From Acidobacteriota bacterium (lineage in GTDB: Bacteria; Acidobacteriota; UBA6911): 64,000 bases of DNA. The notes under the pieces were generated by a model. The model made no database searches, was not told the origin of the DNA, and saw only the letters and a program-made list of their open reading frames with translations. A program made the translations under genes and the position numbers. Within the stretch, counting starts at the first letter, position 1. Each line of letters starts with the position of its first letter. The stretch is from positions 5,920,001 to 5,984,000 of the forward strand of contig OY761556.1 of NCBI GenBank assembly GCA_963664705.1, read 5' to 3'. Positions 2,709 to 44,623 of this stretch are shown piece by piece.

Positions 2709-3085
2709 GTGTTGACCCTCTCCAAAGATGATCCCCGGGTTCCTCCAGCCCCTGCTTTGCAATGCTGCAAGCGGCCGTCAGGAGAGCGGCTGGGCTTTTC
2801 GACGAACGGAGGTACTGCATCCAGTTCATAGAAAATCGTACACGATTTTCATGCCTGAATTCCAAATTATTCCAGGGACCTCCCAACGAAATTTTCCTCC
2901 CGCAATGCTCGCCTGATCTGAGAATTATCGTTGAGCTTCAAACGAGCTCACCGGCTCAAGGCAAACCCAAGTGGAGTGGTAGGTTAACGCGGTTGCTCTC
3001 TTAGCTGTCGGCTTCAACGGCGCAGGGAGATCGTTTTTGATCGCTTAAGGAGATGAACAGAAGAAGGAACAGCGCAACCTGCGCG

Positions 3086-3535
3086 TCAGGGATTAAACCG
3101 CGCCCCTCGCATCAGGTGGATGCAGAAACCTATGGCTACAGCAATTAGCGGTAGCATGATTAGGGAAAGCAGTCGGGTAGCCAAACGGACATTCGGCTTA
3201 TTGACGTTGTCGAGCGCCCACGACAGTAGTGGGAGCATCGCAACCACCCACACTACATATTCCACCAGGTCGGGATGGTACTTTCCCTGGAAGGACTCTA
3301 TCAATTCCATGGCTCCGATGGTGAGAGAGGCAATCAAACCGCCCAGCCATTCCCATCGCTAGGCTGCAATCAATCCGGCAGCAAAAATCGGGAGGCAAAT
3401 GAGCAAAACAGGATCTGGTCGTGTTGGTTGTTGCACCGCCAGATCCAAGACACTCAGTACACCGACAAGCAGAATGACAATGCTGAAGGCGCGCCAGATC
3501 ACACGCACAATGAGACTCATAATCCTGAGTTCCAT
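3086..3535 (-). pseudogene. Small membrane protein interrupted by an in-frame TAG at 3359-3361
   Basis: ORFs 3359..3553 and 3086..3337 share a frame; the joined reading ...GLIAA*RWEWLGGLIAS... is one continuous hydrophobic protein. Confidence 0.6.
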
Positions 3536-3659
3536 GGCAGCAGCCCCTGACAATAAAAGAATCCGGCAGTACCTTCTGGCTTTCCAGTCCAGGGCTTCAT
3601 GGAAATCCGGCTAAATACGCCGAAATTGCCCAAAAGGCAGGAACGGCTGAAACAAAATT

Positions 3660-4271
3660 TCAATCGCTTCCAGCGCTTCCCTTGAAACGGTCCTCTTCTT
3701 CGGCAAAAAGGATATTGAAGCTCGTCAACGTCCCGTAGCATCCCGTAATGTAGCCCTGCAGTTTGATCTTTTGATCCTCCGGAATCTCCATTCCATTTAT
3801 TTGCTGCTCCAGCACGCGCAAACGATTTCTGAGCATCCCGATCTTGTGGAAAAATGTTTCTATGGGCCAACTCTTCTCCTGGAGCCCCTCTTTTGCAGGA
3901 CGCAAAACCATTTCGCCGCCATTCCATTTGTCAGCAATCGCAATTGGGGTCAGGCCGGTCTCTTCTCTGATTATGCGTCTCAACATCATTTCAAGATCTG
4001 CAGCACCTTCGCTTTGGGATAAGTCAACCACGGGGAGTTTCCTTTCTCGCTCCGTTATCAGGGGTATCTGAGGTGGAGCTGATGGTTCAGATTTCACTTT
4101 TGATTGACCTTCTCTGGCCTCGCCCCCACGATAATTGTGCTGACTGCCACAATAATTACAGATGACTCTCAGCGCTGCCCCTTGTGCCTCCGCAACGATC
4201 ACGGTATGACTGCGAACTGTTTTGCAGGCACGGCACAAATCATCCAGTGGATCCCCTGCTTTGAAAGACAC
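3660..4271 (-). CDS. Hypothetical protein with N-terminal zinc-ribbon-like Cys motifs
   Basis: CRAC ... CNYCGSQH, C-terminal coiled-coil; 203 aa with GGAGG RBS upstream. Confidence 0.75.
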   Translation of the reverse strand: MSFKAGDPLDDLCRACKTVRSHTVIVAEAQGAALRVICNYCGSQHNYRGGEAREGQSKVKSEPSAPPQIPLITERERKLPVVDLSQSEGAADLEMMLRRIIREETGLTPIAIADKWNGGEMVLRPAKEGLQEKSWPIETFFHKIGMLRNRLRVLEQQINGMEIPEDQKIKLQGYITGCYGTLTSFNILFAEEEDRFKGSAGSD

Positions 4272-26889: not shown

Positions 26890-29094
26890 ATGATTCGCTT
26901 TCCTCAGTTCACGAAGATAAGAGAGTTCCTGGCAGGGATCCTCAAGCGGAAACGGGCTCGGACTCCAACGGTCATACAAATGGAGGCGGTGGAGTGCGGG
27001 GCTGCCAGCCTGGGCATGATTCTGGGCTATCACGGCCGGTTCATTCCATTGGAGGAACTGCGCGTAGCCTGCGGCGTATCACGTGATGGCAGCAAAGCTC
27101 TCAATATCGTGAAAGCCGCGCGGTCGTTCGGCCTGCTTGCCAAAGGATACAAGAAGGAGCCGGAACAGCTGCGCTCGATGCCGCTCCCGATGATTGTTTT
27201 CTGGAACTTCAATCACTTCGTCGTGGTTGAGGGATTCAAGCGTGGCAGGGTGTACCTGAACGACCCGGGGGCTGGCCCGCGCTGGGTGTCGGATCAGGAG
27301 TTTGACGAATCCTTCACGGGCGTGGTCTTGGCTTTTGAAAAAGGACCCGATTTTAAGACGGGTGGTCATCAGGCCTCAATCCTGAAATCGCTCGGAAACC
27401 GGCTCCCCGGAAGCCGCGTTGCCCTGGCATATATCGTGCTGGCGACCCTGGCTCTTGTTTTGCCGGGAATCCTGATCGCCGTGTTCTCCAAGATTTTCGT
27501 CGATAATATTCTATTGCAGGAATCGAGATCGTGGCTGAAGCCGCTGCTGATGGCCATGGTGGTAACCGCAATCGTTCGCGGATTACTGACCTTTTTCCAG
27601 CAGCGCAACCTGCTCCGCATGGAAATGAAGCTGGCCCTTGGGGCATCGAGCCGTTTCTTCTGGCACATTCTGCGGCTGCCCATGGAGTTCTTCGCCCAGC
27701 GATTTGCCGGCGACATCGCTTCGCGCATTCAGATCAACGACAATGTGGCCGTTCTCCTCTCGGGGGATCTCGCGACAAGCCTCGTCAGCATCGTGATGAT
27801 CGGCTTTTTTGCCGGGTTGATGTTTCAGTATGACGTTGTTTTGACTTTGCTGGGCATCGCCGTGGCTCTCCTTAACTTTGGAATTCTGCGGCTGCTCGCC
27901 CGCAGGCAGCGCAGCAACAATCTGCGGCTTCTGACGCAAAGGGGGAAGCTCGCGGGTACCTCTATGGCGGGTCTCCAGGGTTTGGAAACACTGAAGGCGA
28001 CTGGAACCGAAACAGAGTTTTTCAGCACGTGGGCGGGGCACCAGGCAAAACTGGTGCAGTCTGAGCAGGACATGGCTGTCGGATCTCTCTATTTGCAGGC
28101 CGCGCCGGCCTTCCTGACATCGATCAATGCAGTGGCCGTGATTGTTTTGGGCGGATTGCGCGTCATGGATGGATTCCTGACGATGGGAATGCTGATCGCT
28201 TTCCAGACTTTGATGGCCAGCTTTATTGAACCTGTCAATCGGCTGATAGATATGGGCGGACGATTGCAGGAAGCCAAAGGCGAGATGAACCAGTTGGATG
28301 ATGTCCTTCACTATCGCCAGGACCCGATGATCTCCCAAGTACGGCCGGCTCCCACCGAAAATCCGGGGAACAAACTGCAGGGCTCCCTGGAGCTGCGCAA
28401 CTTGACCTTTGGATACAGTCGGCTGGAGCCTCCGCTGATCAAAGACTTCAGCCTGACGCTCAAACCGGGCCAGCGAGTGGCTTTGGTCGGAGGGTCCGGA
28501 AGCGGCAAGTCTACGGTGGCAAAAATGGTTGCAGGGCTGTACGAACCATGGGAAGGGGAAATTTTGTTTGATGGCGTCCGCCGACAGGAATTGCCCCGCG
28601 ATCTGATCAGCAATTCCGTTGCGATGGTGAACCAGGAGATTACGCTTTTTGAAGACACCATTCGCAACAATCTGAGCCTGTGGGACGACACGATCGAGGA
28701 ACCGGTTATTGTCAGGGCTGCGGAGGATGCGTGCATCCATGACGACATCACGGACCGGGTCAAAGGATACAACTATGTCGTGGAGGAACAGGGGCGGAAT
28801 TTCAGCGGAGGCCAGCGACAGCGGCTCGAAATTGCCAGGGCTTTGGTGGGGAACCCGAGCATTCTCGTGCTGGACGAAGCCACCAGCGCCCTGGATCCCC
28901 TCACTGAAAAGCAGGTGGACGATGCTTTGAGGCGTCGAGGCTGCACCTGCCTGATTGTGGCGCATCGTCTCAGCACGATCCGGGACTGTGATGAGATCAT
29001 TGTCCTGGATAGGGGCGCCGTTGTGGAGCGGGGCGCACATTCGGAATTAATGAGCAACGAGGGCACCTACGCCCGCCTGATACGGACGGTTTAG
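26890..29094 (+). CDS. NHLM bacteriocin export ABC transporter, C39 peptidase/permease/ATPase
   Basis: QMEAVECGAASL (catalytic Cys), FNHFVVVEG (His), GGSGSGKST, FSGGQRQR, LDEATS. Confidence 0.96.
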   Translation: MIRFPQFTKIREFLAGILKRKRARTPTVIQMEAVECGAASLGMILGYHGRFIPLEELRVACGVSRDGSKALNIVKAARSFGLLAKGYKKEPEQLRSMPLPMIVFWNFNHFVVVEGFKRGRVYLNDPGAGPRWVSDQEFDESFTGVVLAFEKGPDFKTGGHQASILKSLGNRLPGSRVALAYIVLATLALVLPGILIAVFSKIFVDNILLQESRSWLKPLLMAMVVTAIVRGLLTFFQQRNLLRMEMKLALGASSRFFWHILRLPMEFFAQRFAGDIASRIQINDNVAVLLSGDLATSLVSIVMIGFFAGLMFQYDVVLTLLGIAVALLNFGILRLLARRQRSNNLRLLTQRGKLAGTSMAGLQGLETLKATGTETEFFSTWAGHQAKLVQSEQDMAVGSLYLQAAPAFLTSINAVAVIVLGGLRVMDGFLTMGMLIAFQTLMASFIEPVNRLIDMGGRLQEAKGEMNQLDDVLHYRQDPMISQVRPAPTENPGNKLQGSLELRNLTFGYSRLEPPLIKDFSLTLKPGQRVALVGGSGSGKSTVAKMVAGLYEPWEGEILFDGVRRQELPRDLISNSVAMVNQEITLFEDTIRNNLSLWDDTIEEPVIVRAAEDACIHDDITDRVKGYNYVVEEQGRNFSGGQRQRLEIARALVGNPSILVLDEATSALDPLTEKQVDDALRRRGCTCLIVAHRLSTIRDCDEIIVLDRGAVVERGAHSELMSNEGTYARLIRTV

Positions 29095-29095
29095 A

Positions 29096-31975
29096 ATGGG
29101 TCAACCGGTCACTCCCTCCATCCAGTCCCTGGAAGATAAAATTCAGGCTGCTCCCTTTCTGATTCATGATGCCCGGAAAATGTGGCTGATAATTTCGGGC
29201 AGCCTGGATTTATTCCTTGTCAGCGTCAACGACGGCAATTCCTATGGGGCGAGGACCCATGTGCTCCGCGCCGGGTGCGGTTCCGCTGTCTTTGGCGTGG
29301 ATTGCGCTCCCTCGTCCATCGAGCAGCTGCTGGCGGTTCCCGGACCCGGATGTCGAATCCGGGAGCTATCCTGCGGGGAGACGCTCGACAACCAGGAGAT
29401 GGAAAAGCTGCTGGACGGTTGGATATCAGGGCTGTCCTCAGCGGCAGCAAGAGATCTGGTTCCCCAAAACGTCGAGTATCTGCAGCCTGCTTCAAAGCTG
29501 GAGCTCAGCGAGGCAAAAGCGGTTCTGAGCCGCAAAGGTGTCCTGTGGGTGCGGTTGATCAAGGGGGCCGCGCGGTTCCTGGGCGAGTATGATCTGGCAA
29601 CCGGTGAGGGTTCTACTCCTTTTCCTCTTACCGAATCCACATGGCTGCAGGCTGAAAAGGATTGCTCCTTCGCGGCGATCACGGCCGGCCGGGACTTGAT
29701 TTTCGGAACAGATACGCAGACCGGAGGATTAGGGCTGTTCCATGAGCGAGTTTTGAATTGCCTTATTCAAAACCGGCGGCGCGACGAGGAAAAAGAGAAG
29801 GAACGGATTGCGCGTCGGAATGAAGCGGACCGTGACCGCGTCGATCAATCCATGCAGCTTCTGGCTTCACCCCTGCTGGAAAAACAGGAGGTCCCGGAGG
29901 GAGCTGAAGGCGATCCACTGATTCTTGCGTGCGGGGTCCTGGGTAAAAAACTCGGAATTCAGTTCAAACCCGCTCCGGGGCCAATTCCAAAGAGCGAAGA
30001 ACCTGTAATCGCAATTGCGCGCGCATCGAACGTCCGCGTCCGCAGTGTGGCCCTGAAAGGCAAATGGTGGAACGAGGATAACGGTCCCCTGCTGGGCCGC
30101 CGCGAGAGTGATCAGATGCCGGTTGCGCTCCTGCCGTCTTCCGCCAGGAGCTATGATTTGTATGATCCGGTTGCCCGCACCTATGCCCGCGTTGATGAGA
30201 GCGTCGCGCGAACCCTGGAAGTTTTCGCGTGGCAATTCTATCGTCCCTTTCCCGCGAAGGAACTCGGGTTGTTCGATTTGATCCGGTTTGGCTTCAACGA
30301 CTGCCGCGGCAGCCTTGGCACCATGCTCCTGATGGGAGCGGCAACCGGCGTGCTGGGAATGTCCATTCCTGTGGGCACCGGGATCCTGTTCGATTCCATC
30401 ATTCCCGGGGCAAACCGTTCCCAGCTTCTTCAGATGCTCGTGTTGATGGCGGTCGTGTGTGTCTGCACAACGCTTTTCCAGATTGTCCAGAACATTGCAG
30501 TGCTTCGAATTCGCGGCAAAATGGACGCGTCGGTACAGGCGGCGGTTTGGGACCGGCTGCTGAGCTTGCCCGTGCCTTTTTTCAGGGATTTTACGGCGGG
30601 GGATCTTGCTACCCGAAGTCTGAGTATCAGCGCAATCTGGGACATCCTGACGGGATCGGTCCTTTCGTCACTTCTCTCTGGACTATTCTCTATCTTCAGC
30701 TTCGTACTCCTCTTCTACTATAGCTGGAAGCTCGCTCTATTGGCGACCGGTCTTACCGTGGTCACGGCGCTGGTAACCATTTTCAGCGGTTACCAGGAAG
30801 TGCGTTGCCGGCGGGAGACAGCGCAAATTCAGGGGCATCTTTCCGGAATGCTGCTCCAGTTTATCAATGGCATTGCAAAATTGAGGATTTCCGCGACAGA
30901 AAATCGCGCTTTTGCATCGTGGGCAAAAGAGTTTACCCGTCAGAAAAAGTCCTCCATCCGGAGCCGGAAGGTTTCGGTCCGGCTTGCGGTATTCACGTCG
31001 GTATTTCCAGTTCTCGGTTCTGCGGTAATTTTTTATGCCATGTCTTCTCTGTCTGGGGGGGCTGAAAGCCTGTCGTTATCAACCGGGAACTTCCTTGCGT
31101 TCAATGCGGCGTTTACCCAATTCGAATTTGCCGTTCTCGCCTTAAGTTCCGCGCTGATTTCGGCTCTCCACATCGTGCCGCTGTATGAGCGTGCTCTGCC
31201 GATTCTCCAAACACTGCCGGAGGTTGATACCACAAAGAGTCACCCGGGCGAGTTGTCGGGCAATATCGAAGTGCGGCACGTAAATTTCCGTTACCGTCCC
31301 GACACCGCTCTGATCCTGCGGGATGTATCGCTCAAAATTGCATCCGGAAGGTTCGTGGCCCTGGTGGGGCCCTCCGGCAGCGGCAAGTCCACGATTTTCC
31401 GGATGCTGCTCGGATTCGAGATGCCGGAGTCGGGGGCGATCCTCTATGACAACCAGGATCAATCGCAGATCGACATGCAGGCCGTTCGGAAACAGATTGG
31501 AGTGGTGCTGCAGAGCGGACAATTGTTTGCCGACTCGATTTACAGAAACATCGTGGGTTCCGCTCCCATCACAATAGAAGAGGCATGGGAGGCAGCCTGC
31601 AAGGCAGGGATGGACAAGGATATTCAGGCAATGCCGATGGGCCTGCATACCGTGCTGGCTGAGGGTGGCGGCGGATTGTCCGGCGGGCAGCGGCAGCGGT
31701 TGATGATCGCGCGCGCCATCGTCCGGAAACCGCGCATTCTCTTTTTCGATGAAGCGACCAGTGCACTCGACAATGAGACGCAAACGATCGTGAGCCGGAG
31801 CCTGGAAAGCCTGAAGTCAACCCGGGTTGTCATTGCGCACCGGCTCAGCACAATTGCCAATGCCGATTATATCTACGTGATGGACAAAGGAACTATCGTT
31901 CAGGAAGGGACGTATCAGGACCTGATTGGCAAGCCCGGGCCTTTTGCCGATCTGGCTCGTCGGCAGATTGCCTGA
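29096..31975 (+). CDS. NHLM bacteriocin system ABC transporter, permease/ATP-binding (peptidase-less partner)
   Basis: AAVWDRLLSLP, GPSGSGKST, LSGGQRQR, FDEATSALDN; adjacent to the C39-ABC. Confidence 0.94.
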   Translation: MGQPVTPSIQSLEDKIQAAPFLIHDARKMWLIISGSLDLFLVSVNDGNSYGARTHVLRAGCGSAVFGVDCAPSSIEQLLAVPGPGCRIRELSCGETLDNQEMEKLLDGWISGLSSAAARDLVPQNVEYLQPASKLELSEAKAVLSRKGVLWVRLIKGAARFLGEYDLATGEGSTPFPLTESTWLQAEKDCSFAAITAGRDLIFGTDTQTGGLGLFHERVLNCLIQNRRRDEEKEKERIARRNEADRDRVDQSMQLLASPLLEKQEVPEGAEGDPLILACGVLGKKLGIQFKPAPGPIPKSEEPVIAIARASNVRVRSVALKGKWWNEDNGPLLGRRESDQMPVALLPSSARSYDLYDPVARTYARVDESVARTLEVFAWQFYRPFPAKELGLFDLIRFGFNDCRGSLGTMLLMGAATGVLGMSIPVGTGILFDSIIPGANRSQLLQMLVLMAVVCVCTTLFQIVQNIAVLRIRGKMDASVQAAVWDRLLSLPVPFFRDFTAGDLATRSLSISAIWDILTGSVLSSLLSGLFSIFSFVLLFYYSWKLALLATGLTVVTALVTIFSGYQEVRCRRETAQIQGHLSGMLLQFINGIAKLRISATENRAFASWAKEFTRQKKSSIRSRKVSVRLAVFTSVFPVLGSAVIFYAMSSLSGGAESLSLSTGNFLAFNAAFTQFEFAVLALSSALISALHIVPLYERALPILQTLPEVDTTKSHPGELSGNIEVRHVNFRYRPDTALILRDVSLKIASGRFVALVGPSGSGKSTIFRMLLGFEMPESGAILYDNQDQSQIDMQAVRKQIGVVLQSGQLFADSIYRNIVGSAPITIEEAWEAACKAGMDKDIQAMPMGLHTVLAEGGGGLSGGQRQRLMIARAIVRKPRILFFDEATSALDNETQTIVSRSLESLKSTRVVIAHRLSTIANADYIYVMDKGTIVQEGTYQDLIGKPGPFADLARRQIA

Positions 31976-32003
31976 TTCAGCCGTTCTCTCAAGTGAGGAA
32001 GCG

Positions 32004-32540
32004 ATGAGGAAAGCACTTTATTTTTTGGGCATCCTGGATGATCGGGATATTGACTGGATAATCCGCAATGGCAGAAAGATGACGCTGAAGCCTGGAGCGC
32101 AGCTGATCGAAGAGGGGAAGCCGACGGATTGGCTTTACTTCGTGCTCGAAGGATCCTTCGTGGTCTACACTGCGGCCGCGTCCAGAATCGCAGTTCTCAA
32201 AGCGGGAGAGGTGGTAGGAGAAATTTCCTTCGTCGATTCGCGTCCGCCCACCGCCAACGTGCGCGCGGAAACCGAATCCAGAGTCGGCGCGATTCAGCGC
32301 GATATGTTGATGCAACGGCTGCAGGAGAACGTCGGGTTTGCAGCTCGCTTCTATCAATCGCTGGCGGCTTATCTGGCGGACCGCCTGCGAACCACCGTGG
32401 GAACCCTGGGGGTTCAGAAACTGAATCTCGATGAAAGTATCGAAGACACGGATGAGCTGGCCCCGCATCTGCTCAGCAATTTGTCGATGGCCGGAACCCG
32501 TTTTACCGACATGCAGAGACGCGAGTGGGGGAGAGGTTAG
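32004..32540 (+). CDS. Cyclic nucleotide-binding domain protein associated with bacteriocin-type transport
   Basis: MRKALYFLGILDDRDIDW, GEVVGEISFVDSRPPTANV; this family typically follows NHLM transporters. Confidence 0.88.
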   Translation: MRKALYFLGILDDRDIDWIIRNGRKMTLKPGAQLIEEGKPTDWLYFVLEGSFVVYTAAASRIAVLKAGEVVGEISFVDSRPPTANVRAETESRVGAIQRDMLMQRLQENVGFAARFYQSLAAYLADRLRTTVGTLGVQKLNLDESIEDTDELAPHLLSNLSMAGTRFTDMQRREWGRG

Positions 32541-32790
32541 AGACGAACACAGCGCCGGGCGAGGGAAATCGCATATAGGAGTTACGCTCAATGCGGCAGC
32601 CGCGTGCGTCATTCCAATAACCAAAATATTATTGTTTTGCCCGGAGCACTCAAGTAACATCCACGGCTATGTTTGGAAAGTCTGGAGCTTCGCGCCAGTT
32701 AATCTTTCAAAATAGCAGCTGACGACCCCGGCAGGCTCAAGGGATTCAAGTGTTGATTTACCATTCATGATCGGACGAAGGAGAGAGAAT

Positions 32791-32952
32791 ATGGCAGACG
32801 AGAAGAAAGAAAAGAAGCCCATCAAGATCACCATCGATGACCAAGGAGCGGTCAAGCTCGATCAGGAACAGCTCGATGAAGAACAATTGAGTGCTATTGC
32901 CGGTGGGATCGAGATCATCCGGAATGTCACGTGCCGTATAACAAGAAGATAA
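32791..32952 (+). CDS. RiPP precursor peptide (39-aa double-glycine leader plus 14-aa core IEIIRNVTCRITRR)
   Basis: AAGGAGAG RBS; leader ends LDEEQLSAIAGG (C39 cleavage motif); lies between the exporter and two radical SAM genes. Confidence 0.9.
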   Translation: MADEKKEKKPIKITIDDQGAVKLDQEQLDEEQLSAIAGGIEIIRNVTCRITRR

Positions 32953-33019: not shown

Positions 33020-33050
33020 CCCTTGCGGGGAGATGGTTTCCCCGCAAGGG
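33020..33050 (+). promoter_or_regulatory. Strong stem-loop between precursor and maturase genes
   Basis: CCCTTGCGGGGA-gatggtt-TCCCCGCAAGGG, 12-bp perfect stem, no U-tract. Confidence 0.65.
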
Positions 33051-33067: not shown

Positions 33068-34069
33068 ATGAAAGATGTGAATTTCCCATCCCCTGCAGAA
33101 CTGGGGGCAGCCCTGAACCCCAGCGCCCTCTACCTGATGGTCTTTCCGACCGAAGACTGTAATCTCCGATGTACATATTGCTATGAGGATCACAAGCCCG
33201 GCAGCATGAGCCCGTCAGTGCTTGGCGGGCTGGAACGGCTGATTGAGCGCAGAATGAGAGACCTCAGGCATATCCGTCTGTCGTGGTTTGGAGGAGAGCC
33301 GCTGCTGGCAAAAAATGTTGTTTTCGAGTTGGCCGAGTTTGTCCAAAAGTGCTGCGCTCAGTCCGGCTGCGTTCACCTGCCGGGCAGCGTCACGACCAAT
33401 GGTTACCTGTTGACTGCGGATGTTGCGCAACGGCTGATAGCGGCCGGACAAAAGCAATTTCATATTTCGCTCGACGGGATTGGGGAAGCCCATGATCATA
33501 GCCGTCCCCTTGTTTCGGGCCGCGGTTCCTTCGAACGAATCTGGGCCAACCTGCATGCGCTTCGATGCAGCGCACTGGAATTCGAGCTTGTTTTCCGAGT
33601 TCACTATGGATTTCCCGCGAGGGAGGCTACCGAGGCCTTGTGCCGGCATTTGAATGCGGATTTTGGGGGCGATCGCCGGTTCCGCGTTACGCTGCAGTCC
33701 ATAGCCGATCTCGGGGGGGAGAATACCGGGACGTTTACACCGTTGTCTGTTACGGAAGCGTTGTGCGCTTCTGACGTTTTTTCGGCGCTCATGCCCGATC
33801 TTGTGGTCAGCGACAACAAAACAGCTGATTATTGCATATGCGAGGCGGCACGGCCCAATCACCTGCTGATCCGGCCTGACGGACGGGTTTGCAAATGCGC
33901 CGTGAATCTGAATGATCCACGCAATGAGGTGGGCAGAATCACCGAGGATGGCAGAATCGAGTTTAACCAGCAGCGGCTTCAGCCCTGGTTCAGAGGATTT
34001 GAACAACTCGACAAGGATATCCTCCTATGTCCCTTCACTTGGGTTTGCGAAACCCCGCTGGAACAATGA
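33068..34069 (+). CDS. Radical SAM peptide maturase with C-terminal Twitch/SPASM-like Cys cluster
   Basis: CNLRCTYC, WFGGEPLL, TTNG, ISLDG; C-terminal CICEAARPNHLLIRPDGRVCKC...CP. Confidence 0.92.
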   Translation: MKDVNFPSPAELGAALNPSALYLMVFPTEDCNLRCTYCYEDHKPGSMSPSVLGGLERLIERRMRDLRHIRLSWFGGEPLLAKNVVFELAEFVQKCCAQSGCVHLPGSVTTNGYLLTADVAQRLIAAGQKQFHISLDGIGEAHDHSRPLVSGRGSFERIWANLHALRCSALEFELVFRVHYGFPAREATEALCRHLNADFGGDRRFRVTLQSIADLGGENTGTFTPLSVTEALCASDVFSALMPDLVVSDNKTADYCICEAARPNHLLIRPDGRVCKCAVNLNDPRNEVGRITEDGRIEFNQQRLQPWFRGFEQLDKDILLCPFTWVCETPLEQ

Positions 34070-35964
34070 CTGGTAAACGAAAGCGATCGTCAAACTCGAC
34101 CAGGCTCCCCAAGGTGGCACTTGTAGCTGCCCCTTGGCAAACCTTCTGTCGCCCGTCCATCCAGCTTGCCTGTCTCAAAGCTTTTGCTGAAAAACACGTC
34201 CCAGGCGTCAGGGTTGAAACGCATCATCTCTATCTGGCTGTCGCTGCCGGCCTGGGCCGCCCGCAATATGATGCGGTTTCCTGCTGGGACTCTGTTATCT
34301 GTGAATCGCTCTATGGCAATCTGCTTTTTCCATCGAAAAGATCGGACGCCGAGAATGCGCTCCGGCAGATGGTCGGGCGAAGGGCTTTGGCACGCATCCC
34401 ATATGGGCCGCTGATGAAACGGATCCGTGCCGCGACGGATTCCTACGTGGATAGTGTGGATTGGTCCGAATATAGCCTGGTTGGATTCTCCATCTGCCTG
34501 GCTCAACTCGCCTCTTCGCTCTACTGCATCCGGCGGATCAAGCGCCGGTATCCGGATCTGCCGGTGGTTATCGGAGGTTCCTCTTACGGCCGCGAGTCCT
34601 TGCAGCGCATTCTATGCGGTTTTCCCGAGGTGGACATTGCCGTTAATGGTGAGGGGGAAATCCCTTTTGGCGACCTCCTGGAACTGATTTCGAAGGGCGA
34701 GGGCCTGGATGCGATGCGAGCCGTGCCCGGTGTTGTCACAAAAGAGTCTGTGTTTGAGGCACCGATCGCCTGCCGCCAGTTGCCTTCCCTGGATCAGCTT
34801 CCGTATCCCGATTTTACGGATTATTTTGAGCAGCTGAAAACCCTGGCGCATGCAAAACCCTTTTATACCACTCTGCTGATCGAGTCATCGAGAGGTTGCG
34901 CATGGCGTTCAAGCGGAAGTTCAGCGAATCCTGATCGGCCGGGATGCGCCTTCTGCGGTCTGAACCGGACCTGGCAAGGTTATCGTTACAAGTCGGCCGA
35001 GAGAGTAGCGGCGGAGGTTGATGCCCTTTCCGATCAGCATGGAATTCTTGCGCTGGCATTTACGGATAATCTTTTGCCTGTTTCCGCATCGGTTCGCCAT
35101 CCCGTCGAGCTCAAGGCCCTGAACAAAGATCTCAGCCTCTTTGGAGAAATGCGCGCAAACATCACCCGTCCCGTGAGCCGCGCATTGGCGGATGCCGGTT
35201 TCGAGTGCGTTCAGCTGGGAATCGAATCGCTCAGCACGCCGCTTCTCGCAAAGATGAAAAAGGGAACCACTGCGATTCAAAATCTGCAAGCCCTGAAACT
35301 ATGCGAAGAGCAGGGTATTGTCGCGCTGTGGAACCTGCTGATCGAGTTTCCCTCCAGCGACAGGCACGATATCGATGAAACCCTGCGCGTGATGCGCTTC
35401 GCGATGCATTTCAGGCCGTGTAAAATTTCTGTTTTCGAGCTTGAACCCGACAGCATGGTTGCGACTGATCCGCCGGCCTATGGCATTCCCAAAATCATAG
35501 AAAATCCGCTGTTGCACTCGCTTTTCCCTCCCGGGTTTTCGCGTTCACTGCCTCGGCTCTTCCTGGACTATCGCGGGCGAAAGGAACAGAAAAAGCTTTG
35601 GGCGCCTGTGCGTCGCCAGGTAAGGCTTTGGAATCGCGAGTACCAGCTGCTTCAGGAAAACCTGCCACTCGGACCGATCCTGTCCTACAGCGATGGCGGC
35701 TCTTTCCTGTTGATCAGAAAAAAACGGCCGGGGGCTCCGGCAACGGTATATCGCTTTGGGGAGGCGAGCCGGGCACTTTATCTCTTCTGCCACGAACACC
35801 AGTCCTTTGCGGCGATTGCTCGCGCATTCAGCTCCATCCGGGAAGATCATCTTCGCCAGCTGCTGCACTCGATGGTGAACCAGCATCTCATGTTTACGGA
35901 AGCCGACCGATATCTGAGCCTTGCCATCCGCGATAACTGGTCTCGCGACAGGAGACAGGAATAG
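34066..35964 (+). CDS. RiPP maturation radical SAM protein with B12-binding-like N-domain (putative C-methyltransferase, TIGR03975-like)
   Basis: RPSIQLACLK, VGFS...Q, GEGE, ESSRGC...CAFCGLN, QLGIESLS...MKKG; ATGA overlap with the upstream gene. Confidence 0.88.
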   Translation: MTGKRKRSSNSTRLPKVALVAAPWQTFCRPSIQLACLKAFAEKHVPGVRVETHHLYLAVAAGLGRPQYDAVSCWDSVICESLYGNLLFPSKRSDAENALRQMVGRRALARIPYGPLMKRIRAATDSYVDSVDWSEYSLVGFSICLAQLASSLYCIRRIKRRYPDLPVVIGGSSYGRESLQRILCGFPEVDIAVNGEGEIPFGDLLELISKGEGLDAMRAVPGVVTKESVFEAPIACRQLPSLDQLPYPDFTDYFEQLKTLAHAKPFYTTLLIESSRGCAWRSSGSSANPDRPGCAFCGLNRTWQGYRYKSAERVAAEVDALSDQHGILALAFTDNLLPVSASVRHPVELKALNKDLSLFGEMRANITRPVSRALADAGFECVQLGIESLSTPLLAKMKKGTTAIQNLQALKLCEEQGIVALWNLLIEFPSSDRHDIDETLRVMRFAMHFRPCKISVFELEPDSMVATDPPAYGIPKIIENPLLHSLFPPGFSRSLPRLFLDYRGRKEQKKLWAPVRRQVRLWNREYQLLQENLPLGPILSYSDGGSFLLIRKKRPGAPATVYRFGEASRALYLFCHEHQSFAAIARAFSSIREDHLRQLLHSMVNQHLMFTEADRYLSLAIRDNWSRDRRQE

Positions 35965-36119: not shown

Positions 36120-36899
36120 GTGGTAGTGCGGCTACCGTCGATTTTCTTCGGCCATGGCAATCCAATGAATGCGCTGAGTGAGAGCGGCTACGGCGCGGAA
36201 TGGCGGCGCCTGGGCGAGGAGATTCCAAGGCCCAATGCCATTGTTTGTGTTTCTGCGCACTGGTTCGTTGGAGGAACCCGTGTTACCGGCAATAAGTTTC
36301 CTGAGACCATTCACGATTTTGGCGGATTTCCAGAGGAGCTCTACCGGATCCTCTATCCGGCGCCGGGGGATCAGGGCCTGGCCGGAAGGCTGCAATCTGC
36401 TCTGGCGCCCCTGGATGTAACGCTCGATGAGACCTGGGGTCTGGATCATGGGACATGGTCTGTGCTCCGGCATGTGTATCCGGATGCCGACGTCCCGGTC
36501 GTCCAGTTGAGCATTGATGCGAGAAAGCCGGCGTCATTCCATTTTGAATTGGGCCGGCGGCTGGCGCCTTTGCGGAGCGAAGGGATTCTGATCATGGGCA
36601 GCGGCAACCTGGTTCATAATCTTCATCATTATGCTTGGGGACAGCCGAAAGCCGAGCCTCGCGCCTGGGCGGTTCGTTTCGAGAATAGGGTTAGGGCGGT
36701 GCTTTCATCGGGAGAGTTTGAGCCGCTGATTCGTTATGAAGAGCTGGATCCGGATGCCAGGTTATCTGTTCCGACGCCGGATCATTATCTGCCGCTGCTT
36801 TATGTTCTTGGTACGCGTCAGCCGGATGAGCCCGTCAGCTATCCGATAGAGGGCATTGAGGGTGGCTCGCTTTCCATGTTGACGGTATGTGTCGGCTAA
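36120..36899 (+). CDS. ygiD: 4,5-DOPA dioxygenase extradiol (LigB/YgiD family)
   Basis: FFGHGNPMNA, SAHW, TIHDFGGFP, GLDHGTW, GSGNLVHNL, PTPDHYLPL. Confidence 0.92.
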   Translation: MVVRLPSIFFGHGNPMNALSESGYGAEWRRLGEEIPRPNAIVCVSAHWFVGGTRVTGNKFPETIHDFGGFPEELYRILYPAPGDQGLAGRLQSALAPLDVTLDETWGLDHGTWSVLRHVYPDADVPVVQLSIDARKPASFHFELGRRLAPLRSEGILIMGSGNLVHNLHHYAWGQPKAEPRAWAVRFENRVRAVLSSGEFEPLIRYEELDPDARLSVPTPDHYLPLLYVLGTRQPDEPVSYPIEGIEGGSLSMLTVCVG

Positions 36900-43810: not shown

Positions 43811-44623
43811 CTAGCCACGAGACCTGCTTCCGCGGCATTTGATTCCGACAAGCCCAATCAGACCCGCTCCCAGAAGGAACATGCTTCCGGGCTCCGGCAC
43901 AGGAGTGGAGTAGGTGATACTGCCAAATCCAAACTGGCGGTTGGGGGTCGAGGCGCTGCCATAGGTTTGCTCGACGGCTAGACCGGTTATGTGTTCATCC
44001 GCATAATTCCCCTGGTTGAGCATGTAGTTGATCCAATAGCCCCAGTTCAAGTTATCGGGAGAGGGATTCCCCAGGGGATTCGGACTCAACGCGCCCGCAT
44101 TCACATCCAGACTAAGCAATTCGCCGCTTGCAATATGCAGAAACAGCCTGATGCTGTCCGCCGGGGCGCCGGAGCCTCCTGAAGCGAGGGCATTTGTCCC
44201 CAGAAGCTTGAAGGATAGATCCGTGGCAGCGTAGGTATTGCCAAAGAGAACTGTATTTTTCGGATCTTGTGGTAAATCAAAGTTTAATATCAGTGCTTCG
44301 CGGAAAGTAATAGGGCTATCCGAGCTGCTGGTTCCGACTCCGAGTCCCACATAGGGGGCAGGAGGGGCAACTGGATTCGTGGTTGCAGTTGTTCCCAGGT
44401 AACCCAGCGTGCCCCAGTAAACGCTGGAAGCTGCACCGGTACCTTGCTGAAATGGGTTTTGCGATATATTGCCCATTGTCTTGGCGGTAATGGTCAATCC
44501 TGGGAAAAGGAGCTGGGAAGAGGATGCATCTGTCGCGCCCAAATTGAAAGAAATGGTGGCGGCCCAGGCCGATCCCGTGAATAACATCAATAGTGCACTT
44601 GCGAATAGCCGCGCGAATCTCAT
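43811..44623 (-). CDS. PEP-CTERM sorting-domain surface protein
   Basis: Signal peptide; C-terminal VPEPGSMFLLGAGLIGLVGIKCR. Confidence 0.9.
   Translation of the reverse strand: MRFARLFASALLMLFTGSAWAATISFNLGATDASSSQLLFPGLTITAKTMGNISQNPFQQGTGAASSVYWGTLGYLGTTATTNPVAPPAPYVGLGVGTSSSDSPITFREALILNFDLPQDPKNTVLFGNTYAATDLSFKLLGTNALASGGSGAPADSIRLFLHIASGELLSLDVNAGALSPNPLGNPSPDNLNWGYWINYMLNQGNYADEHITGLAVEQTYGSASTPNRQFGFGSITYSTPVPEPGSMFLLGAGLIGLVGIKCRGSRSRG

Follow-up and report, generated by a model that had tools for sequence, protein, structure and literature searches.

Described systems and their relation to the locus

In the papers we examined, thioethers between cysteine and asparagine are attributed to streptococcal enzymes only. 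In the NxxcA/NxxcB system of Streptococcus orisratti the precursor core holds a single N-x-x-C motif whose acceptor Asn lies upstream of the Cys (Asn20-Cys23; PMC9389541 and PMC8326336), and the precursor studied here likewise has one such motif, formed by Asn45 and Cys48. NxxcB and the product of the gene that starts at position 33068 (enzyme 1) are both radical SAM proteins with an auxiliary cluster, and by analogy enzyme 1 is likely to work in the manner of NxxcA/NxxcB. The two systems differ in architecture and setting: the SPASM domain of NxxcB accommodates two auxiliary clusters (PMC11851443), and its gene adjoins an shp/rgg operon, whereas enzyme 1 has one three-Cys site and is accompanied by an NHLP exporter, a B12 methyltransferase and a precursor with a hairpin plus Gly-Gly leader. 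No Rgg-type protein was found among the 11 cluster and flanking proteins scanned. Membership of enzyme 1 in the streptococcal NxxcB group was ruled out by the one auxiliary site and by the lack of an Rgg-type match among those 11 proteins.

QmpB, which like GggB belongs to the type 2 sactipeptide systems, also uses an Asn acceptor, as predicted here, and joins the Cys sulfur to Asn C-alpha in small unnested rings (PMC11851443); those rings are 9-membered, against the 12- or 13-membered ring of an N-x-x-C motif. CteB, the thermocellin ranthisynthase (PDB 5WGG, 5WHY), is the best solved match to enzyme 1 by profile and by Foldseek and also has an open-site auxiliary cluster, whereas its RRE and second auxiliary cluster are both missing from enzyme 1 (16-19% identity). 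The acceptors differ as well, being Thr C-gamma for CteB, Asp for PapB (freyrasin) and, by prediction, Asn here. SkfB resembles enzyme 1 in its twitch domain and three-Cys cluster and differs in having an RRE.

The second enzyme of the locus, encoded from position 34066 (enzyme 2), shares the Class B architecture and a stretched cluster motif with PoyB/PoyC (polytheonamide) and MpcB (clavusporin), with Cx7Cx2C there and Cx15Cx2C here. PoyC methylates Ile and Val (PMC11285071), and MpcB beta-methylates Pro, Val, Ile and Thr of a cationic 13-mer surfactant (PMC10849626), for which it requires a DUF5825 partner that is absent here. The products of neither system contain a radical thioether ring.

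The window, by which we mean the whole 64,000-nucleotide stretch of acidobacterial DNA that was analysed, encodes the features collected in Table 1. Our preferred explanation, to which we assign a probability of about 0.57, is that enzyme 1 joins C48 to a carbon of Asn45, enzyme 2 C-methylates Ile, Val or Thr residues, and the peptide is cleaved after Gly-Gly and exported.

Table 1. Features of the locus, numbered from the first nucleotide of the window.
Feature	Position	Strand	Evidence
NHLP-system secretion (HlyD-type) protein, short form, 208 aa	26257..26883	+	TIGR03794, 204 bits (cut-off 156)
C39 peptidase-ABC transporter, predicted to cut after Gly-Gly and export	26890..29094	+	TIGR03796, 1097 bits (cut-off 853); PF03412 at residues 25-152
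Second NHLP ABC transporter subunit	29096..31975	+	TIGR03797, 942 bits (cut-off 709)
Cyclic-nucleotide-binding protein of bacteriocin-type transport clusters, one-domain form	31926..32540	+	PF00027 above cut-off
Ribosome-binding site AAGGAG	32778..32783	+	Sequence; 7 nt before the precursor ATG
Precursor peptide, 53 aa	32791..32952	+	Translated frame MADEKKEKKPIKITIDDQGAVKLDQEQLDEEQLSAIAGG-IEIIRNVTCRITRR, then two stops
Leader motif I-x-I-D-D-x-G-x-V-x-L, residues 13-23	32827..32859	+	Iterated profile; hairpin predicted to dock on enzyme 1
Gly-Gly, predicted cleavage site	32902..32907	+	Sequence; C39 peptidase in cluster
Core IEIIRNVTCRITRR	32908..32949	+	1742.01 Da unmodified; 1739.99 Da after loss of 2H
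N45-V-T-C48 motif, predicted thioether ring	32923..32934	+	Codons; family N-x-x-C; exception P0366
Perfect 12-bp stem-loop between precursor and enzyme 1 genes	33020..33050	+	Fold z -3.1; 1/200 shuffles as stable
Enzyme 1, compact radical SAM enzyme, 333 aa, predicted thioether synthase	33068..34069	+	Three-Cys auxiliary site, no RRE
Enzyme 2, predicted B12-dependent radical SAM C-methyltransferase	34066..35964	+	TIGR03975, 350 bits (350.2); cut-off 282 (281.85)

Gene cluster and precursor

The exporter, cyclic-nucleotide-binding, precursor and both radical SAM genes all share one strand, and the TIGR03794/03796/03797 export trio is complete, each member scoring above its cut-off. The HlyD-type protein is read from an uninterrupted frame, but of the 421 positions of its profile it matches only 1-55 and 291-420, positions 56-290 being missing in frame; thus shortened, it may not reach an outer-membrane channel, so that export perhaps proceeds only to the periplasm. 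Elsewhere in the window, a protein encoded at 43811-44623 on the minus strand ends, by eye, in a PEP-CTERM-like tail (VPEPGSMFLLGAGLIGLV...), which suggests a diderm host. The cyclic-nucleotide-binding protein, with a likely ATG start at 32004, matches TIGR03896 over its C-terminal half only (131 bits, below the cut-off of 161), and relatives of it lie beside the same enzyme family in three other loci (L013, L033 and L091). The stem-loop between the precursor and enzyme 1 genes likely stabilises or attenuates the transcript; no T-run terminator was called there, and a promoter and terminator scan stayed at chance level.

The genome holds a single copy of each radical SAM enzyme and a single precursor. 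Relatives of the precursor, enzyme 1 and enzyme 2 (P0003, P0005 and P0272; 75%, 79% and 71% identity) all have a JGI contig of 37,398 bp as their recorded source, probably one and the same, and a second precursor relative and an enzyme 1 relative, both recorded with a 3,779-bp contig, were taken to share it. Downstream, 155 nt after the methyltransferase gene, 36120-36899 encodes a LigB-type member of the 4,5-DOPA-extradiol dioxygenase family (344 bits, cut-off 233), which we excluded from the cluster because no copy occurs in the other loci. Elsewhere in the genome, a group of three other radical SAM matches spans less than 6 kb (G000:C1, 4974278-4979939). Among sequencing runs, no RNA run was listed for the locus; short identical DNA pieces were found in a second study and none in another, which has no bearing on expression.

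The precursor gene is real: it has three close homologues, and it is the sole frame among 127,881 in its genome that matches the leader profile described below at E<0.01 (E 0.0008). Its leader ends in ...QLSAIAGG, a double-Gly type. Translation reproduces exactly what the initial annotation had read from the DNA, a core with a single Cys placed at +3 from an Asn, and the positions that it gave for the two enzymes are right. Likewise borne out is its description of the core as rich in Arg and beta-branched residues: the 14 residues comprise one Cys (C48), an Asn at -3 from it (N45), seven beta-branched residues and four Arg, while aromatic residues are absent. When the non-Cys residues are shuffled, the N-x-x-C spacing arises in a single peptide with a chance of 1 in 13, so that the weight of the motif has to come from relatives.

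No relative of the precursor was found in viral contigs, and NCBIfam models for nitrile-hydratase-like or Nif11 leaders did not match it, and its best scores against any NCBIfam model are about 14 bits, below cut-offs. An ExbD/TolR identity was rejected, the matches being below cut-off; a sub-threshold Pfam match of this sort explains why the source record of the homologous precursor P0003 wrongly names it 'biopolymer transport protein ExbD'. In the ESM Atlas the precursor occurs only in unnamed clusters and enzyme 1 in clusters named 'radical SAM protein'.

Conservation of N-x-x-C in the enzyme family

Searches with enzyme 1 at E<=1e-30 returned 1176 relatives among 7997 scored candidates, and a set clustered at 50% contains 808 representatives, some of which may belong to neighbouring families; the family is spread over cyanobacteria, actinomycetes, bacilli, rhizobia, deinococci and acidobacteria. 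At E<=1e-50, a sample of 136 further genomes from the class contained no relative, and seven were found in a phylum sample of 400; a single weak match turned up in 100 relatives. We gathered 96 loci, the metagenomic part of which consists of the best 80 of 574 confirmed loci, with flanks of at most 8 kb and often short; a genome-contig search with enzyme 1 as the single query gave 8 loci (28-39% identity). Among those best 80 of 574, the closest enzyme 1 clade is represented only by L017, the nearest enzyme with visible DNA (45%), which has a Gly-Gly precursor with NFKC.

Small frames beside plasmid loci carry a leader motif, I-x-x-D-x-x-G-x-V-x-I, in common with the precursor studied here. 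A leader-only profile, seeded with 13 sequences and iterated, matched 63 frames in 53 of the 96 loci, and leader Gly19 was invariant in all 32 aligned precursors. Seven frames were removed by rules blind to the core (our own window, one duplicate, three more than 1.5 kb away and two that run past a contig end). The remaining 56 peptides come from 46 loci, and each contains Cys. The 43 loci without a leader-profile match include many that are too short, some with drifted leaders and four outside the family.

N-x-x-C is present in 46 of these 56 precursors, whereas permuting the non-Cys residues gives an expectation of 18.1 over the whole tail or 23.7 over the core window and a maximum of 35 in 2000 shuffles. 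Counted by residue, Asn stands at -3 of 86 of the 170 Cys, against 22-30 expected, and Asp at -3 of 10. The cores of ten seed peptides (eight with N-x-x-C) had been seen beforehand, and excluding them the count is 38/46; a match at L068 that overlaps the enzyme and is probably false was retained and counted as a miss. The counted precursors are kin and not fully independent; the count is 23/30 after collapse at 40% identity (vs 11.0 expected; none of 5000 shuffles as high) and 22/27 for precursors with at most two Cys (vs 7.6; again none of 5000). On a quick tree of the enzymes, the motif is found at 36 of 45 loci, on all main branches. Two peptides have the Cys as their last residue (L014, ...NNVC-stop; L049, ...NIWC-stop), so that only an upstream acceptor is available.

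The motif is absent from 10 of the 56 peptides. Asn is also enriched at -4 (45 vs 20-27 expected; 33 of the 45 without Asn at -3), which points to a second register, N-x-x-x-C. Asn at +2 occurs in 40 cases, of which 33 begin the next N-x-x-C or N-x-x-x-C; the core studied here has none. The leader profile matched nothing in a hold-out of 8 new loci taken from the phylum sample: upstream of the two compact enzymes only about 115 nt of sequence were present, and longer enzymes adjoin N-x-C or D-x-x-C peptides. Peptides picked by hand in loci without a leader match had been selected for [ND]-x-x-C and, this being circular, were not counted.

The closest precursors are P0002 (85%, core IEIIRNVTCKIQKR), P0003 (75%, core IEIIRNVSCKFQKR) and P0366 (core IEIIRRLTCSGGKTM). 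In this group of four, the Cys, the IEIIR stretch and a Thr or Ser at -1 are kept throughout, and Asn at -3 is kept in three, since P0366, from a 642-bp contig, reads IEIIRRLTC, with Arg in place of Asn. The check suggested by the initial annotation, conservation of N-x-x-C among homologous precursors, thus supports its proposed Cys-Asn thioether across the family and only in part within the closest group, where this one precursor departs from the pattern.

The departure could be taken to mean that a Cys48 thioether does form, with position determining the acceptor (whatever residue stands at -3) or with a different residue in that role (Arg44 at -4 or Thr47 at -1), which we regard as unlikely while ranking it first among the alternatives. 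Apart from the pattern in the closest precursors, the N-x-x-x-C register speaks for it, as does the acceptance of Ala, Gln or Asp as acceptor by NxxcB (PMC9389541). It would also suit enzyme 1, where Glu259, beside the auxiliary cluster, would match an Arg-rich core; this Glu is found in enzyme 1 and its two closest relatives (P0004-P0006 only, of 150), the family having Tyr in 94%. On the other hand, no signal in the data is stronger than that of Asn at -3 across the family, and P0366 may be a drifted copy.

Architecture and affinity of enzyme 1

For the alignment, 150 relatives were chosen from 270 proteins (P0004-P0270), long or fragmentary ones being avoided. Outside CxxxCxxC, only C258, C277 and C321 are invariant (150/150), and 111 of the 150 have exactly three Cys in the auxiliary region. 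Fewer than 70 residues precede CxxxCxxC in all 150, so the family has no N-terminal RRE. In SkfB the auxiliary cluster has three Cys ligands, and in CteB a free iron binds the substrate Cys (PMC8326336); the three-Cys site of enzyme 1 is likely to be an open-site auxiliary cluster of this kind, as expected for thiol activation, and it supports the proposed thioether synthase activity.

Among its best 25 of 73 NCBIfam matches (TIGR04463, PapB, CefB, DynA and others), enzyme 1 stays under every cut-off, with a best score of 126 bits against 525, and five of its relatives likewise stay below the maturase cut-offs; the PapB model is among the top matches (89 bits, cut-off 340). The predicted structure (pLDDT 83) matches CteB first in Foldseek, and also SkfB, anSME and ChlB, whereas VIA-align places the non-thioether enzymes anSME (Z 20.7) and ChlB (20.4) in a tie with CteB (20.1), with an rmsd of 3.6-4.1 over about 280 residues, and EpeE at 15.8. 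The family profile, compared with solved structures, scores 100.7 bits for CteB and 58.5 for the next. ChlB, solved with its leader ChlA (PDB 9GM3), is a radical SAM enzyme of similar size and 21% identical to enzyme 1. We take ChlB to be a cyclophane (triceptide) former, a chemistry at odds with a core that has no aromatic residue. The argument made earlier against triceptide or darobactin-type chemistry thus holds for this core, which lacks F, W, Y and H; in the family, 33 of 56 core windows hold one of these residues and 6 hold Trp. Of the features that mark ranthipeptide systems, a SPASM/twitch radical SAM enzyme beside a Cys-containing precursor is present, and the donor Cys has a conserved acceptor spacing in 46/56 of the family and 3/4 of the closest group.

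Six active-site proximity positions of SPASM/twitch enzymes follow a scheme given in PMC10288494. They read Y39/F74/T109/S134/A/V in enzyme 1, F/F/T/S/H/Q in CteB and Y/T/I/S/K/L in the sactisynthase StsB; positions 1-4 are alike in enzyme 1 and CteB, three of the six being identical, whereas positions 5-6 differ (A/V vs H/Q). These residues lean to a non-alpha link, but they leave alpha versus beta undecided because the alpha-linking QmpB and GggB profile like ranthisynthases in that scheme. Profile score and the three identical residues speak for placing enzyme 1 with the QhpD/CteB/PapB type and not with hairpin sactisynthases, and the fold tie with anSME and ChlB speaks against relying on this.

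The tie with anSME, the top VIA-align row, bears on a second alternative, namely that enzyme 1 acts on N-x-x-C by chemistry other than thioether formation, such as anSME-like oxidation at the Cys C-beta to a thioaldehyde that the Asn amide captures, or an N-S or C-N link. The preference for Asn over Asp at -3 (86 vs 10 of 170) could mean that the amide takes part, and Lys276, the conserved neighbour of C277 (K in 94%, R in 6%), is a possible occupant of the fourth iron site, as non-Cys cluster ligands occur in twitch enzymes. We nevertheless judge this quite unlikely, since the sequence profile prefers CteB by 42 bits, anSME differs at proximity positions 2-3 (Gln/Gln vs Phe/Thr here), and NxxcB and QmpB provide two precedents for Cys-Asn thioethers.

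Enzyme 1 might, with low probability, instead be an epimerase or another modifier that forms no crosslink, the Cys serving as a disulfide or metal ligand. In proteusin clusters, epimerases occur together with PoyC-type methyltransferases and NHLP exporters; the Ile/Val/Thr-rich core, the TIGR03975 partner and the NHLP transporter resemble this logic; EpeE is moreover among the fold matches. Its score is, however, about 4-5 Z units under those of CteB, anSME and ChlB, no fourth invariant Cys is available as H donor, and all 56 family precursors contain Cys, with a fixed Asn spacing.

Predicted recognition of the leader

A complex of enzyme 1 with the precursor, two 4Fe-4S clusters and SAM was predicted with a score of 0.79, compared to 0.01 for the best of three controls. 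Of pairs with solved structures 116 of 157 attain this mark, and of mismatched pairs 2 of 215, a calibration that applies only approximately to the present case; the score was perhaps helped by the solved ChlB-ChlA, CteB-CteA and SuiB-SuiA complexes (12-21% identical) and carries no atom-level or bond geometry. Between runs at least 51% of contacts were shared, with a partner pLDDT of at least 58. The contacts of lowest error pair leader residues 13-21 with enzyme residues 16-21, 58, 62, 263-266, 296-299, 304, 308 and 311, and the predicted interface includes the conserved R62 (91%) and N264 (95%), the ligands of the auxiliary cluster (258, 277 and 321) and, from the core, residues 43-49. The model thus predicts that the leader hairpin docks directly on the RRE-less enzyme.

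A C-terminal strand-turn-strand hairpin of enzyme 1 at residues 291-304 (33938-33979; ITEDGRIEFNQQRL, with Gly295 invariant) resembles the leader motif (IDDQGAVKLDQEQL, 32830-32871, residues 14-27) and is predicted to pair with it. When the leader profile was run on the enzymes, 81 of 112 best matches fell at this hairpin, and the region scored above 0 in 48 of 150 enzymes, compared to 2-5 shuffled and 13 reversed; hhalign gave a probability of 15%. We treat this likeness as a weak lead.

The predicted B12-dependent methyltransferase

Enzyme 2 has the cluster motif C278-x15-C294-x2-C297; among its relatives the first spacing is x13 in 67 of 95 and x7 in 8 of 95. The B12 domain PF02310 scores 26.6 bits, below its cut-off of 32.1, and the predicted structure (pLDDT 90) matches OxsB, TsrM and TokK and ends in a unit of three strands and three helices that is RRE-like. 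PoyB/PoyC and MpcB are presumably members of the same TIGR03975 family as enzyme 2. Clusters called by a TIGR03975 rule were set aside as likely false positives in one study (10.1101/2022.04.01.486688); the full cluster found at this locus argues against a false positive here.

Methylation of Ile, Val, Thr and Arg had all been proposed for this enzyme. The aliphatic and hydroxyl targets fare better than Arg, since IEIIR is kept in all four close precursors (IEII 4/4), whereas R49 is replaced in all three close homologues and R52 in at least two (P0002 and P0003). In the other 95 loci, with flanks of at most 8 kb and often short, relatives of enzyme 2 were limited to one weak, partial match (L008, 25%), so that the pairing of ring and methyltransferase looks lineage-specific.

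Proposed route and its generalisation

In the route that we favour, leader residues 13-23 would first dock, as in the predicted complex, against enzyme 1 residues 16-21, 58-62, 263-266 and 296-299, with the core entering the barrel near the auxiliary cluster. By analogy with CteB, SkfB and NxxcB, and given the three invariant Cys, the C48 thiol would then bind the open iron, a 5'-deoxyadenosyl radical would take a hydrogen from Asn45, and a C-S bond would form with a change of -2 Da. We favour closure at C-beta (a 13-membered, ranthipeptide ring) over C-alpha (12-membered, sactionine) by about 3:2. Enzyme 2, judging from its family name and from PoyC and MpcB, would add beta-methyl groups, each worth +14 Da, for which the conserved residues IEII...V are the most likely sites, and the C39-ABC transporter, whose families score above cut-off, would remove the leader and export the product. 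The resulting 14-mer would be cationic and amphiphilic and contain a single small ring; as a guess by analogy with clavusporin, membrane or surface action seems likely.

That the locus is instead a decaying, horizontally gained remnant with little or no product, as the gap in the HlyD-type protein, the Y259E change and the failure to find enzyme 1 in the 136 other sampled genomes of the class might suggest, is the least probable reading, given that all frames are open, both ABC subunits and the methyltransferase score above cut-off, Glu259 is common to two relatives at 76-79% identity, and the precursor and both enzymes are conserved at 71-85%.

A wider generalisation, which is possible but which we hold to be doubtful, is that minimal thioether synthases of about 330 aa, lacking an RRE and with one auxiliary cluster, form a widespread family that recognises a portable 11-residue leader hairpin by pairing it with a similar hairpin within the enzyme and then staples N-x-x-C, with B12-dependent beta-methylation added here and with a relaxed choice of acceptor in the Glu259 lineage, where Cys-Arg thioethers would also form.

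Relation to published work

No description of this enzyme and precursor family was found in the literature, though it may sit in a large mining-supplement table; look-ups by accession (enzymes of three relatives and two precursors) and the supplement file of PMC10288494 gave no match. The loci apparently represent a large, uncharacterised family of modified peptides, with no NCBIfam model for the enzyme or the precursors. The pairing of a thioether ring with cobalamin-dependent beta-methylation was found in no paper. Within the literature examined, the ring chemistry has precedent, and the enzyme architecture, portable leader, breadth of the family and methyltransferase pairing were found without one.

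The N-x-x-C motif is thereby tied to an enzyme family that looks unrelated to, and is much smaller than, streptococcal NxxcB. If the reading is right, peptide cyclisation would gain a useful tool, a stapling enzyme that is encoded by one gene, needs no RRE and is directed by a short hairpin tag, and a precursor with one Cys and one Asn would be the cleanest substrate for deciding between alpha and beta linkage and for the role of the open auxiliary iron. The methyltransferase in turn predicts the product type, a ring plus beta-methyls.

Other precursors of the family

In Nostoc punctiforme (plasmid pNPUN02, L013), two genes annotated as 'type A2 lanthipeptide' (3030-3218 and 3431-3664) encode hairpin-leader N-x-x-C precursors; they adjoin a compact radical SAM gene and an NHLP exporter, which makes this cultured strain a test system. 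At three loci (L038:5653-6207, L046:105-404 and L092:241-558) the enzyme lies beside precursors that look Nif11- or NHLP-type and contain N-x-x-C, a by-eye and circular pick that hints at leader swapping. The Terracidiphilus precursors (L001:7448-7792 and L002:7386-7790) have a signal-peptide-like N-terminus ahead of the hairpin leader, and some precursors at L036, L052, L049 and L084 appear to carry the leader hairpin motif twice.
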